From the NCBI GenBank assembly GCA_963675745.2, contig CAXXWX010000023.1, forward strand, positions 64,001 through 128,000: DNA of 64,000 bases. The letters are read 5' to 3'. This document shows, one piece after another, positions 4,779-20,054 of this stretch. The stretch's first letter is position 1. The number at the start of each line of letters is the position of its first letter. Origin of the DNA: Phycisphaerae bacterium. GTDB taxonomy: Bacteria; Planctomycetota; Phycisphaerae; UBA1845; Fen-1342. A program made the translations under genes and the position numbers. Below the pieces are notes generated by a model. That model had not been told where the DNA came from, ran no database searches, and worked only from the letters and a program-made list of their open reading frames with translations.

Positions 4779-4959
4779 GCTGTAATCCAGCGCCGGTCCC
4801 ATAGGTAGCGGCCCCATCAGTCGGTCGCTTGTGCGAACCGGTCGAGGCTTCAAATGCGGAATGAAGAATGATGAATGCAGACCCCCCCAACGTGCCGCCT
4901 TGTCGGTTTCTGCATTCATCATTCCGCATTCTGCATTCTCCGCGCGTGCCCCACGGCGT
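4779..4959. repeat. Composite repeat copy 2 (REP-like unit plus heptamer hairpin)
   Basis: 92-nt identity with 1863-1954; downstream TGCCCCACGGCGT is also shared. Confidence 0.9.
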
Positions 4960-14308: not shown

Positions 14309-15118
14309 TTATCCCGGAAGCGCCTCGGCCAGCTCGTCGATGAACGCGCATACGCTGTCCGCGATCGCCGTTGCATCGTCGCCGCGCGACACGCCGTCGT
14401 TCATTCGACGGACGATGGCGCTGCCGACTATGACGCCATCGGCCGCCTGGCAGACGGCGGCGACCTGGTCCGGGCGGGCGATGCCGAAGCCGACGCAGAT
14501 GGGCTTGTCGGTTTCCGCGCGCAGCTCCTCGAGGTGTTGCCGCAGATCGTCGGGCAGCGCCGCCCGCTCGCCGGTCACGCCCGTGAGCGACTGGTAATAG
14601 ACCCACGGCTCCGACAGGGCGGCGATGCGCCGGCGGCGGCTTTCGTCGCTCGTCGGCGCGATCATCATCGCCAGCGGAAAATCGTGCTTTCTCCCCAGGG
14701 TGACCAGCTCATCCGCTTCTTCCAACGCCAGGTCAGGCACGATCATGCCATCAATGCCGGCGGCCCGGGCGGACTCTATAAAGCGGGCCGGCTGCTGGCG
14801 ATAGACGACCGAATAGCTCACCATCACCATCAGCGGCACGCGTATCTCGCCGCGGGCCGACTTCAACGCCGACAGCAGCGGCGCCAGGCGAAAGCCCGCA
14901 TCCAGCGCGTGCGAGAACGAAGTCTGAATCACGGGCCCGTCGGCGATCGGGTCGGAAAACGGTATGCCCAACTCGGCACAACCGATCCGCCGCGGATCAA
15001 GCCGCTTTAATATCTCGACGGTGGTCGCCACGTCGGGATAGCCGCCGGTGATATAGGGAATCAGCGTGTGCCCGCCGCCGGCCTTCAACCCGTCAAATGC
15101 CTGTCTCAGTCGATTCAT
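14309..15118 (-). CDS. trpA: Tryptophan synthase alpha chain
   Basis: LIPYITGGYP, ELGIPFSDPIADGPVIQ, GVTG, VGFGI, ADGVIVGSA. Confidence 0.97.
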   Translation of the reverse strand: MNRLRQAFDGLKAGGGHTLIPYITGGYPDVATTVEILKRLDPRRIGCAELGIPFSDPIADGPVIQTSFSHALDAGFRLAPLLSALKSARGEIRVPLMVMVSYSVVYRQQPARFIESARAAGIDGMIVPDLALEEADELVTLGRKHDFPLAMMIAPTSDESRRRRIAALSEPWVYYQSLTGVTGERAALPDDLRQHLEELRAETDKPICVGFGIARPDQVAAVCQAADGVIVGSAIVRRMNDGVSRGDDATAIADSVCAFIDELAEALPG

Positions 15119-15467
15119 GGTGGTTCGTATCGTATGCGGCCGCGAGTCCGGCGACAACGGCGAACCGGCGGGGACCACGTGCTATCGTTGCGTCCGCCCC
15201 CGAGCCGGACGTCGTGTGCACGCCGGTGGCGCTGACCGGTAATCAACCGGTGCCACATGATACCGGCAGAATCGAGTTCGCCGGCGCGGATCGGCTGCAG
15301 CCGGCCGGTCCTTGCCACCGGTTTCAGCGGGCGGTGCCGGTTTACCATCACCACTCGGGCCGGCTTCTCGCTGCGCCGTTCGAAGCCCGGCTGAAGCCGG
15401 CTGCGTGGGGATGGGAATCCGAGTAAGCCCTCGTCCACCAACTGAAGTTGGTGGCAAGTGCTGGTCG

Positions 15468-15616
15468 GCTGAAGCCGACCGACGGGGGCGACGCGTCAAC
15501 TCACAAGCGACAACGACCTGAATATGCCCATCTGCTGAAGCCGACCGACGGACCGACGTGTCAGCTCACAGACGTCAACAATCTGAATGTGTGCAGTTGC
15601 TGGAGCCGACCGCCGG
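15468..15616. repeat. Degenerate ~66-nt tandem repeat (about 2.3 units) in a palindrome-rich intergenic region
   Basis: GCTG(A/G)AGCCGACCG at 15468, 15534 and 15599; whole units are similar. Confidence 0.75.
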
Positions 15617-15818
15617 CGCACCGCGGACGCGAACAGCGCGCGGCGGTGCCGGTTTACGCCAGCCTTACCAGATCGTAAACTAGCGTCTGGTCGCAAACGC
15701 GTGTCGGCGCACTGCCGGCGGGCGTTACCGAGCGGCCGCCCGCACCCGCGCTGAATGCGGGTTCTGGGTGTTTGACAAGTGAATGGGCCCATAGCTCAGT
15801 TGGTTAGAGCAGCCGACT

Positions 15819-16194
15819 TAACGCGTCGCCGGCGCTAAAACACTCCCGCGTCTTTCAGATGCACTCACAAGCGGGCGTGTCATGCTCGACGGCGCAGGGT
15901 CTTTCCGGCGGGAACGTCGGATTAGCAGGTTGTCAAAGTCGGGGAAAGCTAAGGGCGGAAACGCCTATGCCAATCCCGAGCCAAGCAGGAGATGAGAAGC
16001 GAATGAAGAATGCGGAATGATGAATGCAGAAGGCCGGCGACGCGTGCCGATCCATGAATCGCCAACCCTATTCTGCATTTCGCATTCACCATTCTGCATT
16101 CTCCGTCTCCGGGCGTGTGTAGAGACTGGACGGCAACCCACCCAGGCCGGGTGAAGGGACAGTCCGAGCCCACGGGAAACCGTGGAACAAGTCG
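15819..16194 (+). ncRNA. Group I self-splicing intron (376 nt, no ORF)
   Basis: 5' exon ends in U, intron ends in G; IGS GGUC 15898-15901; P3 GGTTGTC/GGCAACC; P AAAGTCGGGGAA, Q AATCCCGAGC, R GTAGAGACT, S AAGGGACAGTCC; GNRA-capped P2, P5 and P9. Confidence 0.92.
16001..16102. repeat. GAATGNN heptamer inverted-repeat hairpin inside the intron
   Basis: GAATGAA GAATGCG GAATGAT GAATGCA GAA ... TTC TGCATTT CGCATTC ACCATTC TGCATTC. Confidence 0.9.
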
Positions 16195-16531
16195 CATAAT
16201 CGGCTGGTCGCAGGTTCGAGTCCTGCTGGGCCCAATAACCACATCTTCAACGCAGACCACTTCCTCGATCAATCTCCGCGCCAAATGGACGGGAGGCCGA
16301 CACTCTGAGCCAGCGCTGTTGGCCCCGCGCGCACTAACCGACCGAAGTCGGGCCGGCCGGCCGATACGGCGATGGCGGGCCGGTTCGAGCTAACGCGTTT
16401 TACCTCATAGCGCAGCGGCCGACCCCCGAGTCGGCCGTGACCTCGAGAGAGTGCATGCTGGTTGACCACGTCCGACTCTGGGGTCTGACGCTACAGGTAA
16501 ACGTCAATTGCTCTAATGCGTGCGTTCACTC

Positions 16532-16574
16532 AAAACACAGACGACCGCGCCGGGAAGTAACCCGGGCGCGGTCG
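16532..16574 (-). terminator. Probable intrinsic terminator
   Basis: Minus strand CGACCGCGCCCGGG/CCCGGCGCGGTCG stem then TCTGTGTTTT, just after the stop at 16605. Confidence 0.55.
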
Positions 16575-16604
16575 CCGATTCTCGCTCACTCGCGTCGAGC
16601 GATC

Positions 16605-19600
16605 CTAGCTGCTGAGCAGGGCGACAAACGGATCAATGTCGCCGTTGTTGACAAAGCCGTCGTCGTTGATGTCCGCCAGGTTAATGTCGCAGTCCGGATA
16701 CGCCGTGGCGTAGGCGCCCGGGTCCGAGACAGCCAGCACGAACGGATCGATATCGCCGTTGTTGACAAACCCGTCGCAGTTCAAGTCGCCGAGCTCGTAT
16801 TGGGACACCTCACCGAAGGTCAGATTATCGACGGCCAATGAGCCGCCGCCGCCCCAGGTGAACATGCCGTCGGCCATCGAGAGCTGCACCGCAAAGGCGT
16901 CCATTCCGGTCAGGAAGCCCGGCACCGGGCCGACCACGGTCTCGAAACCCTCCGAAACCACCGAGCCGCCCGCGTCGGACACCGAGACATTGTCGAAGTA
17001 CACGGTCGCCCCGGTGCCCCACGTCGGCGTGCGATAGCCGAACACGATGATGGTCGCGATGTAGGTCGGGGAGTTCGGATCGAACCCGCTCTCCGCGCTG
17101 AAGGTGTTCAGCGTGCCGCCGAGGGTATGGAAGCTGCCATCGACCGCCGAGCTGTCCCAGGATATCCGCTTGCCGTACTGGTCCTCGAGCCGGAGCGTGA
17201 TGATGCCGGCCGACTCACCGGCGTTCGGATCCCAGATGCCCTTGCAGTCGGCGGTGAACGACACCTGGTTGAGGTTGCTCAAGTCGAGCGCAAGACCAGG
17301 CCAGGCCACGCCGGCCCAGTACCAGCCGGGCGGCGACTCGATGCCCGTGACGTTGAACATACCGCCGCCACTGCCGCCGACGCCACAGGTGGCGCATCCT
17401 TCGACGGTGGCGGTCTCGATCGACGAGCCCCAGCCGAAGCCGGCGAACGCGGTCTCGCCTTCAAGCCCGATGTCCCAGGACGTGAGCGTGGAACCCCACT
17501 CGGGGTAGAACTGGCCACCCTCCGGCGGCCAGGTGGACTCACCGTCCGCCACCAGCCCGCCCACGGACTGGAAGCTGCCGTCCGCCGTGCCTGTGAAGGC
17601 CACGTGGCCGCCTTCCTTGAGCTTCGGGGTCGGGGATGGTGACAAGTAGACGTCGTCAACCGTCAGCGTGCCGCCCCAATTCCCATAGGCCGAGAACGGC
17701 GGCCCCTCGCCGATGAACATGATGACGATGTTGTAATCCAGGCTCGTATCGATGTCGAACACGCCGTTGCTTCCGTCGACGAAGCCGCTGACAGTGTAGC
17801 CGGACAGCGGACCGCCGATGGACTGCCAGGTGCCGTCGTAAACCTCGTCGAAGCCGATCCAGTCGCCGTCCGGGTCTTCGATCCGCAGGATGTACGTAGC
17901 CGGATCCTGAAGCCACTCCTCGTTCCAGGTGCCCTTGGCCTTTGCGGACAGGGTCACCTCCGACAGATTCGCCGAAGCCAGCGCCTGCTCGCGCCAGACG
18001 GCGCCGGCGTACCAGTAGCCGTCCTCGTCGGGCCAGACGTCGAGCACCTCGATCTGCATGCAGCTCCCGTCGTCGCCGTAGCCGCCGCTGGTCAACGCGC
18101 GTACCCACACGCCGCCGGTGGCGGTCACCACGGCGTCCAGCGTGCCGAAGAACACCTCATCGTTCTCGATCTGCGAATTCCAGTTGACGACGGTGCCGCT
18201 GGTGTCATCGGGACCGGCCACCTCGACTTCGGTATCAGAAGTGATCGCCGAGAAGTCCTCGTCCACGTTGGGGGTGGCTACGTAGCCCTGGAGACGGAGC
18301 TCGTAATTCGCGCCGGCGATGCTGCCTTTCACGTCGGCGGCCAGTGTCAGTTCCCGTGGATCAAGCACGCTGAGCGACGGCACATCCCAGATCAGCGCGC
18401 CGCCATAGTCACTTCCGTCGGGCCGATTGTTGGTGAGCACCACGTTGTCGACTGACAAGGTTCCACCGGTACCCCAGGTCGGAGTGCGATCAGGGTCGAA
18501 CAGCAGGACAACCTTGAAGGTGTCCGAATCCAGATCGAACACGCCGGTAGCGGGCACATCCGACGAGTCCTTTTCGATGGCCTGATCCAGCGTGTCGCCG
18601 ATGGTCTGCCAGGTGCCGTCCGCCGCGCTGATCGACTCAAACACCAGCCGATCGCCATCGCTGTCTTCGATGCGCAACTGGTAGTGGCCGTAGGCCTCGC
18701 CGGCGGGGATGTTGGCATCACCCAGGACGTCGGCGGTCAGGCTGTAGTCACTCAGATCAAAGGCCGGCGGACCGGCAATCACGCCGAACGAAACCGTGTC
18801 GAAGAAGACCGCGCCATTATCAGCATTCGGGCTGACCAGTTGCAGGACCGCCCGCACTGTCAGCGTGCCCGCCGGGGCCGTGAGCTGAATCGGCGTGTTG
18901 TCGAACCACGTGTCCAGCGCCGACGAGCCATCGAGCACCGTGGCGGCGGTGGTGGAAAGCGGTTCGGAGTTGATACCGTCATAGAACTCGATCCGCATTT
19001 CCGCGTAGTTGGTGGTGCCGTCGATTCCGTCGGCGGCGTGGTGCGAACTCCAGCAGTCGAGTTCCCAAGTCTGTCCCGGCTCGGCGCGCAGCGTCTGAGC
19101 AACGCCCGCCGAGTCCATGCCGGGGGCCTGGCCCCAGACCTTCAGATCCTGCACCCCCGCCTGCGGACTGGATGTGACGATGAGCACGCTCGGATAGGAG
19201 CCGCCCGTATCACACCACACATCCCAGCCGGCAACCGTGTCCCACAAGCCCAGCTCGAAGCCCGGATTCTGGAGAGTGCCCGAGCCGCCGGGAAAACCGG
19301 AGAGCGACCACGATAGTCCGGCGAACCAGCTTCCGCTGTTCAATATGACGTCGGTCACGTCGATCTGGCCCGCGCCGGTGCCCCCGACGCCGCCGGCGAG
19401 CAGCCCCTGGGCCGACGCGTCTCCGTCGAGGACCGCGCCGTCGCGTGTGTAGCAGAACGCCGCTTCTTGCTCGATGCCGTCGTCCCAATCAGACGTTGAC
19501 CCGGACACATTCGGCGTGACACCGTCTCCCGCGAGGAAGACGCCGCCGCCGGTGCCGGTCACGTCGGCAAAATCCTGGTCGATCATGTTCAGGGAGTTGA

Positions 19601-19904
19601 GTATGACCGCCAGCTCGCCGGCACCGGAGCCGTCCACGCCACCTGTGGGCAGGCCCTGGGCTGACATCTCAACGCGGGCGATTCCGGTCGCCTGGCCGAA
19701 GGCGTACTCCCCGCTGATGCCGTCGTCCCAGCCGAGGAGCCAGTCCGAGCCCAGCCCATCCAGAAACACGCCGCCGCCGGTGCCCGTCACCGAATCGAAG
19801 TTCTCATCCAACGACTGGGCCGTCGTTGGCACACCACCCATGAATCCCAGCAGCAAAACGACGATTGCCACCCGCAATCTCACTCGCTGATTCCCAGCCG
19901 CCAT
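16605..19904 (-). CDS. Large secreted protein with four nested beta-sandwich-like repeats, a CBM4/9-like domain and a C-terminal dockerin-like domain
   Basis: Signal peptide; AAGGAG RBS; LQNPGFE..FFDTVSF; tail GDLNCDGFVNNGDIDPFV x2. Confidence 0.85.
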   Translation of the reverse strand: MAAGNQRVRLRVAIVVLLLGFMGGVPTTAQSLDENFDSVTGTGGGVFLDGLGSDWLLGWDDGISGEYAFGQATGIARVEMSAQGLPTGGVDGSGAGELAVILNSLNMIDQDFADVTGTGGGVFLAGDGVTPNVSGSTSDWDDGIEQEAAFCYTRDGAVLDGDASAQGLLAGGVGGTGAGQIDVTDVILNSGSWFAGLSWSLSGFPGGSGTLQNPGFELGLWDTVAGWDVWCDTGGSYPSVLIVTSSPQAGVQDLKVWGQAPGMDSAGVAQTLRAEPGQTWELDCWSSHHAADGIDGTTNYAEMRIEFYDGINSEPLSTTAATVLDGSSALDTWFDNTPIQLTAPAGTLTVRAVLQLVSPNADNGAVFFDTVSFGVIAGPPAFDLSDYSLTADVLGDANIPAGEAYGHYQLRIEDSDGDRLVFESISAADGTWQTIGDTLDQAIEKDSSDVPATGVFDLDSDTFKVVLLFDPDRTPTWGTGGTLSVDNVVLTNNRPDGSDYGGALIWDVPSLSVLDPRELTLAADVKGSIAGANYELRLQGYVATPNVDEDFSAITSDTEVEVAGPDDTSGTVVNWNSQIENDEVFFGTLDAVVTATGGVWVRALTSGGYGDDGSCMQIEVLDVWPDEDGYWYAGAVWREQALASANLSEVTLSAKAKGTWNEEWLQDPATYILRIEDPDGDWIGFDEVYDGTWQSIGGPLSGYTVSGFVDGSNGVFDIDTSLDYNIVIMFIGEGPPFSAYGNWGGTLTVDDVYLSPSPTPKLKEGGHVAFTGTADGSFQSVGGLVADGESTWPPEGGQFYPEWGSTLTSWDIGLEGETAFAGFGWGSSIETATVEGCATCGVGGSGGGMFNVTGIESPPGWYWAGVAWPGLALDLSNLNQVSFTADCKGIWDPNAGESAGIITLRLEDQYGKRISWDSSAVDGSFHTLGGTLNTFSAESGFDPNSPTYIATIIVFGYRTPTWGTGATVYFDNVSVSDAGGSVVSEGFETVVGPVPGFLTGMDAFAVQLSMADGMFTWGGGGSLAVDNLTFGEVSQYELGDLNCDGFVNNGDIDPFVLAVSDPGAYATAYPDCDINLADINDDGFVNNGDIDPFVALLSS

Positions 19905-20054
19905 AGTCCTGACTCCTTCTTTTCCGACTTCCGATGGCCACCGCACGACGCGGTCACCGAGAAGCGTTGCTCGTTTCCCCGCTGGTCCGGTTCCGCCGCC
20001 GACGGCGGCAACATTGGGAACCGCAGCGCCTTTTCAATCAGCTATTGCCCTGTT

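Follow-up and report, generated by a model that had tools for sequence, protein, structure and literature searches.

Results

A group I intron splits a tRNA gene with a CAU anticodon

The locus described here lies in a window of 64,000 nucleotides (by which we mean the whole stretch of DNA analysed), part of contig C23 of a planctomycete assembly of 5.2 Mb that is 91% complete. There, a tRNA gene with a CAU anticodon is divided into two exons by a group I intron, whose elements are listed in Table 1. Run without its intron mode, ARAGORN missed the split tRNA; with the intron mode (-i), a check proposed by an earlier, sequence-only reading of the locus, the program called a tRNA(cat) with a 376-nt intron at this position, along with about 50 further intron calls in the genome. 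Seven of these further calls were inspected and none was tRNA-like. The Rfam group I models, also proposed as a check, gave a divided answer: a regional cmscan (14500–17500) returned chance or tRNA-like matches and no group I match, while RF00028 used alone matched the intron at 31.2 bits (E 8e-6), under the gathering cut-off of 50 bits for this model. Scores of 18–20 bits have been used for bacterial tRNA introns (Williams 2020, bioRxiv 10.1101/2020.01.27.920355). Across the whole genome this was the single match to RF00028, which thus detected no second group I intron.

Table 1 Features of the split tRNA gene and its intron (window coordinates).
Feature	Position	Strand	Remarks
tRNA 5' exon (positions 1–33)	15785..15818	+	ends C32-U33; U33 is the splice-site U(-1)
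Group I intron, 376 nt, IC3-like, no ORF	15819..16194	+	ends in G
P1 extension hairpin	15819..15896	+	lower stem forms in free fold
Receptor 5' half, GCUAAA	15834..15839	+	11-nt-type tetraloop receptor
Receptor 3' half, CAUGC	15881..15885	+	11 nt before the guide sequence
Internal guide sequence, GGGUC	15897..15901	+	G15898 wobble with U33
P2, GGAA loop 15911–15914	15904..15921	+	GNRA in 10/10 family introns; putative partner P8
P3 5' strand	15928..15934	+	pairs with 16132–16138; two pairs with compensatory change
P4-P5 domain	15939..15979	+	P5 receptor 15948–15953/15966–15970, putative partner L9
L5 GAAA	15958–15961	+	putative partner the P1-extension receptor
Palindromic 7-mer repeat element in P6 extension	15995..16108	+	114 nt; genome-dispersed family
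P7, P3 3' strand, P8, J8/7	16122..16165	+	P7 16122–16127/16161–16165
P9.0 and single P9 hairpin	16166..16194	+	GAAA loop 16176–16179; terminal omega G 16194
tRNA 3' exon, C34 to discriminator A73	16195..16234	+	starts with the CAT anticodon; CCA not encoded

The splice junction had been placed between the U preceding the anticodon and CAT, and intact alleles agree: in relatives without the intron the exon halves abut at CT|CATAA (21 of 23 non-intron loci parsed, and a 22nd read separately), which fixes the junction at U33|C34. Pairing points to the same site, since U33 pairs with G15898 and the next base, a U or C, stands opposite G15897, so that the cut falls after U33. A cut after U15819 was ruled out, this base being C in two of ten relatives and the intact alleles having a 7-nt loop. 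Contigs from two sequencing runs of one sample span the locus, one of them identical over 15500–16232. Joined tRNA forms in the sequencing contigs carry differing letters, derive from other tRNA genes and are uninformative on splicing.

A scan of the locus for promoters and terminators gave nothing that reached threshold. A weak, sub-threshold sigma-70-like hexamer pair (window 15653–15681, 17-nt spacing, 8/12 matches) is a possible promoter about 100 nt upstream of the tRNA. The region upstream also holds a dispersed repeat (about 15420–15620) in two degenerate copies, with 42 BLAST matches in the genome. Downstream lies an ORF of 1113 aa on the minus strand (16605–19946) that has no NCBIfam match and ends in a repeated, Asp/Asn-rich motif, presumably dockerin-like.

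The intron has a complete and conserved core

All helices from P1 to P9 can be drawn on the intron, which has the P3-P7 pseudoknot core, a P4-P6 domain and a guanosine site with a bulged A in P7 (P8 occupies 16139–16153). This agrees with the complete core claimed from the sequence alone and is borne out by ten introns of the same family, in which pairing is kept in 96.6% of 560 cells from P1 to P9. Both sides have changed in 12 of the 56 pairs (none of 500 shuffles was as high, and slid controls gave 30–44%). The window's own intron served as the template for the structure, a choice that gives the structure an advantage over the slid controls, and relatedness inflates covariation tests. The compensatory changes are located in P2, the P3 pseudoknot, P5, P9.0 (two pairs) and P9. 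P4, P6, P7 and P8 are invariant and therefore give no covariation signal, yet form a conserved core, and the P1 and P6 extensions have diverged. The window copy carries one mismatch in P9.0, at a position paired in all nine relatives.

The wobble pair U15818-G15898 is present in 10/10 family introns; the neighbouring G15897 can pair with intron position +1 and then with exon C34, giving a P10 of about 1 bp. In the computed ensemble of the free precursor, P1 has a pair probability of 0.08, and P2, P4, P5, P8 and P9 reach 0.7–1.0. None of 100 shuffles folded as well as the intron region (z -4.2), a result due in part to the repeat hairpin in P6. Judged by eye, the architecture is IC3-like, with a compact periphery and putative L2-P8 and L9-P5 contacts, and we take the intron to resemble the Azoarcus intron in sequence. 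In none of the six frames does a stop-free stretch exceed 81 codons, so there is no endonuclease gene, as had been noted, such as a homing intron would have.

The repeat in the P6 extension belongs to a palindromic 7-mer family with 43 motif matches in the genome, in 25 clusters of which 15 have both arms (none was found in 1.5 Mb of shuffled DNA). Relatives carry unrelated P6 extensions of varying length, and the repeat therefore looks like a tolerated passenger. Further copies stand in the window at about 1926–2103 and 4853–4937; one cluster in the genome adjoins one of four four-helix-bundle genes (TIGR02436, C1:217514-217831), and the P6 loop of another genome (G001) contains a related half-repeat.

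The host is most likely a tRNA-Ile2 on which AUA decoding probably depends

Genomes of the family have three kinds of CAT tRNA. This genome has intact genes of the elongator-Met-like (C27:168933) and initiator (C28:138530) kinds, and the split gene is distinct from both, as expected of the Ile2-type host proposed earlier. It has the pairs C4-G69, U12-A23 and C29-G41, which we take to be Ile and TilS determinants; the elongator-like gene differs at 4-69 and 29-41. The host is thus most likely tRNA-Ile2. Among annotated phage matches to an intact allele, some labels read Ile and others Met, and PMC13494906 gives no identity elements.

TilS is encoded in the genome, with both its N and C domains exceeding the cut-offs (TIGR02432, 156.5 bits against 93.6; TIGR02433, 36.8 against 20.2). 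A pattern search of the 91%-complete assembly found no second Ile2-like or UAU tRNA gene. Together with the presence of TilS, this makes it probable that AUA decoding depends on splicing of the intron, as the sequence-only reading had supposed. Across 1212 long ORFs, taken as a crude set, ATA accounts for 2402 of 38971 Ile codons (~6%) and occurs in 984 of the ORFs. The plain ARAGORN list also lacks genes for Glu(UUC), Pro(UGG) and Val(GAC), so that another Ile2 gene could have escaped assembly. Two extra 3' halves of initiator tRNAs, in opposite orientation and about 29 kb apart on another contig (G000 C26:52989 and C26:82339-82364), look like integration scars.

The same intron was found in six relatives when 61 genomes were searched and, in a family-wide search, in 10 of 72 genomes. 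The intact third-kind CAT gene is absent from all five intron-bearing genomes among 41 searched and present in 34 of 36 intron-free ones, with a 35th read separately. A DNA search with the family intron in 400 other genomes of the phylum, scoring two candidates per genome, gave nothing at E 1e-5. In one comparison, intron-bearing and intact alleles (L120, L122, L123 and L238 with L128 and L129) have neighbouring genes in common, which indicates gain or loss at one locus; the neighbourhood in the window (trpA upstream, on the other strand) is not common to this set. The planctomycete context assumed from the sequence also stood, the nearest named introns in public genomes being from Phycisphaerae or Planctomycetales. 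Other planctomycete records (L090, L100 and L361) hold Ile2-like introns at the same site, two with two P9 hairpins and one close to the type of the window family.

Introns at U33|C34 of non-initiator tRNAs are common

The combination of host and site had been thought unusual. It is not, since our scans recovered this kind of intron in more than 130 non-initiator tRNAs from many phyla. A scan with a pattern joining the 3' end of a group I intron to a CAT 3' exon gave at least 116 loci, and among the 116 matches listed there were 46 introns at the 33/34 site of non-initiator tRNA(CAT) and 24 in initiator tRNAs. Pooling three scans yielded at least 170 distinct introns (155 parsed, 15 unparsed), the parsed ones comprising at least 133 that are Ile2-like, by which we mean non-initiator (some may be elongator Met), and at least 22 in tRNA-fMet. 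The Ile2-like introns come from Acidobacteriota, Chloroflexota, Pseudomonadota, Patescibacteria lineages, Planctomycetota, Armatimonadota, Bdellovibrionota and Bacillota.

The classical cases named in the sequence-only reading, tRNA-fMet at the 33/34 site and tRNA-Ile2 after the anticodon, correspond to fMet.2Ug and Ile2.5Ug among the four classical classes of Williams 2020, which lists 17 new ones besides. By its naming rule (loop site 2, U(-1) and omega G) the window intron is Ile2.2Ug. This host and site pair, common in nature, has probably been catalogued; our literature search, in which most matches were judged from listings, found no text naming a U33|C34 Ile2 intron. The window intron is accordingly a further member of a widespread class, with a variation in structure that may not have been described before.

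The P1 extension carries an 11-nt-type tetraloop receptor motif

The long P1 extension seen earlier (about 15819–15897) is real, and it contains a receptor motif on which the sequence-only reading was silent, as it was on the P6 repeat. This 11-nt-type motif is present in 10/10 family introns, its 5' half at intron +16 to +18 and its 3' half 11 nt from the guide, and the stems around it differ among the ten. The window copy is a variant form whose first pair (G-C) and last pair (A-C) depart from consensus. In a first set, among the matches listed, the receptor was found in 45 of 69 parsed Ile2-like introns, 43 of them with 11–13 nt between receptor and guide (at most 2 in 300 shuffles), and in 0 of 19 fMet introns. 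The full set gave 101 of 133 and 0 of 22, again among the matches listed; fMet introns at U33|C34 thus do without a P1 receptor. Positions flanking the receptor were counted whether or not they could pair: 101 of 102 cases had a standard bottom pair, of five different types, and the top pair was G-U in 72 and A-C in 21 (among the matches listed).

The putative donor sits in one of two places. Among the matches listed, Ile2-like introns mostly have two P9 hairpins, the second nearly always capped by GAAA (fMet introns included), which fits the classical L9-P5 contact. The first is capped by GAAA in 35/35 receptor-bearing and 15/23 receptor-less Ile2-like introns and in 0/18 fMet introns (same scope). 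In the window family, with its one P9 hairpin, the L5 GAAA is invariant. Since P5 keeps a receptor of its own, L9 is accounted for and L5 is spare.

Before a further scan, which selected solely for an L5 GAAA, we predicted that such introns would keep the receptor and have lost the first P9 GAAA loop. The scan gave at least 119 loci (68 mapped to both exons, 51 not mappable), mostly from Blastocatellia among the matches listed. Within the same scope, 47 of 54 new Ile2-like introns had a strict receptor, and a P9 donor was found in 1 of 52 two-hairpin introns by script and in about three more by eye. Altogether, the 101 receptor-bearing introns among the matches listed comprise 54 with only the L5 GAAA, 42 with only the first-P9 GAAA, one with both and four in which the script saw no donor and the eye did. 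The reverse case, a donor without a strict receptor, occurs in 21 Ile2-like introns among the matches listed, where the receptor is mostly degenerate by eye; one of the 21 (L199) has no P1 extension. In addition, three tRNA-Phe introns (L272, L295 and L352) combine an L5 GAAA with a 6-nt P1 that has no extension and no receptor.

The L5-donor type falls into two lineages. Two independent origins are unsupported, as a single origin is not rejected (p-AU 0.74). Of the independent pairs, 5.8 ran in the same direction and 0 in the opposite one (median p 0.03), a result weakened by a tree of 103 columns that is not the best one, its free search being suboptimal.

Several further introns were noted in these scans. 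Many Ile2-like introns of about 600–650 nt (L002, L047, L053, L071, L177, L251 and others) have a P1 extension of about 400 nt with the receptor at its base; five tRNA-Phe introns (the three above with L253 and L254) lie at U33|G34 and have a very short P1; and two acidobacterial introns (L267 and L315) show low-complexity inverted repeats in the first P9 hairpin, where the GAAA loop is lost. A 50-nt segment of P4-P5 has matches (84%, E 1e-5) in Rheinheimera phage records, in a stretch annotated as 'hypothetical protein' that may be an intron missed in annotation.

Discussion

It is very probable, in our view, that the tRNA-Ile2 gene of the cell is interrupted in the window by an IC3-like group I intron that is vertically kept and has no endonuclease, its activity and the isotype of its host being deduced from sequence. 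In the established two-step pathway of group I splicing (passages of PMC3984707; Williams 2020), the precursor would fold so that exon residues G30-U33 pair with the guide as P1, with U33 opposite G15898. A free guanosine bound in P7 would cut after U33; the terminal G16194 would then replace it via P9.0, C34 would pair with G15897, and U33 would be joined to C34. The 3' exon begins with C34, so that there is an anticodon loop only once the exons are joined; TilS would then convert C34 to lysidine and AUA would be read as Ile.

P1 would take two pairs from the anticodon stem, a competition in which it appears weak, given its standing in the computed ensemble. This weakness, together with the geometry of L5 and the receptor, suggests that docking of L5 holds the substrate helix. 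The L5 GAAA would dock in the P1-extension receptor, roughly one helical turn away from the splice site, and would clamp P1 for the first step, beside the usual L2-P8 and L9-P5 contacts. Measured from the place where the U-G pair and J4/5 meet, both L5 and the receptor are about one helical turn away, a placement that would suit side-by-side packing, judging from the Azoarcus geometry. More generally, the P1 receptor and the spare GAAA loop seem rather likely to form a third long-range contact with a swappable donor, seen in few independent events. We incline slightly towards the broader view that most U33|C34 tRNA-Ile2 introns have such a contact: a GAAA/11-nt clamp would link the P1 extension to the ribozyme and hold the splice-site helix against the competing anticodon stem, and its donor would have moved between P9 and P5. 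On this broader view the donor would sit on the extra P9 hairpin in most phyla and at the tip of P5 in the window family and Blastocatellia, a natural module swap.

An ordinary intron whose P1 motif is not docked by L5 is a possibility that we take seriously and lean against. The motif might then be a stable internal loop, a protein site or a partner of L9 or of a loop on another molecule, with the L5 GAAA just a cap. The tRNA-Phe introns that have the loop and no receptor would fit, as would a donor swap that may be a single event, the off-consensus first and last pairs of the window receptor and the Azoarcus intron, which has only two long-range contacts (according to passages of PMC4201826). 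This reading is at odds with the fixed distance between receptor and guide and the covarying flanking pairs, and, among the matches listed, with the spare GAAA of every receptor-bearing intron and the near exclusivity of the two donors; L9, for its part, is accounted for by the receptor in P5.

The remaining alternatives concern the host gene, and we give none of them much weight. That the intron is decaying in a dead gene, crippled by the P6 repeat, with a working Ile2 gene elsewhere, is unlikely: the assembly is incomplete, other tRNA genes are missing from it and P9.0 has its mismatch, but exons and core are intact, the repeat forms a closed hairpin where relatives vary freely, and none of the five intron-bearing genomes has an intact copy. 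Slightly less likely still is an elongator tRNA-Met host, with AUA decoding independent of the intron. Such a gene would have the same CAT anticodon, and the labels of the phage matches are mixed; against this, the genome has separate elongator-Met-like and initiator genes, and across the family the split gene is the third kind, with the 4-69 and 29-41 pairs that the elongator-like gene lacks. Least probable of all, in our estimate, is that splicing serves as a regulated checkpoint on AUA translation, an idea to which the single gene and the spread of AUA over most long ORFs of the crude set lend some appeal, but which sits poorly with an intron confined to 10 of 72 family genomes and with possible sensor extensions that are unconserved save for the receptor.

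As an intron, that of the window is ordinary. It matters for annotation, because its gene is invisible to default tRNA finders and the intron falls under the Rfam cut-off, so that such genomes seem to lack an AUA reader. If the clamp is true, it would show how a weak splice-site helix can be secured in a small ribozyme with no help from protein, and the collected introns would be a natural experiment in the swapping of tertiary modules that could inform the design of compact splicing ribozymes; the clamp would be testable in vitro with the 376-nt intron or with a family intron of 255 nt.

Comparison with known systems

The window intron shares the site, U(-1), omega G and a compact core with the classes named fMet.2Ug and Ile2.2Ug under the scheme of Williams 2020. 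Unlike most of the Ile2-like introns collected here, which have two P9 hairpins, the window family has one, together with its invariant L5 GAAA. The text of Williams 2020 does not mention a P1 receptor. In Acidovorax and Burkholderia, too, tRNA-Ile2 genes escaped annotation on account of a group I intron (the tRNAscan-SE 2.0 paper, bioRxiv 10.1101/614032, which in the part consulted leaves the insertion site unstated).

The 11-nt receptor comprises a C-G pair, a UAA/AU loop and an adenosine platform, with a variable bulged base and an A-to-C platform variant (passages of PMC2275092 and PMC3494683). The receptor in the window shares these features and differs in its first (G-C) and last (A-C) pairs. 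In the same passages, the natural places of the motif are P5, P8 and P6 of group I introns, domain I of group II introns and RNase P, unlike the P1 extension in which it stands here. Passages of PMC2275092 and PMC2219692 contain no P1 receptor in a splicing group I intron, nor did our literature search, which judged most matches from listings and left older tetraloop-receptor papers outside its scope, find one; the proposed third contact may be undescribed for tRNA introns.

The closest structural comparison is the Azoarcus pre-tRNA-Ile intron (IC3; Ile2.5Ug; PDB 1U6B), which occupies the same type of host tRNA and has in common with the window intron a small architecture, a P2 loop, a P5 receptor and a GAAA-capped P9. 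The Azoarcus intron lies after the anticodon, whereas that of the window lies between U33 and C34. Two GAAA/11-nt contacts are described for Azoarcus in passages of PMC3494683; the window intron differs in having a plain P8 helix that ends in three C-G pairs and a GNRA L2, long extensions of both P1 and P6, and one more receptor.
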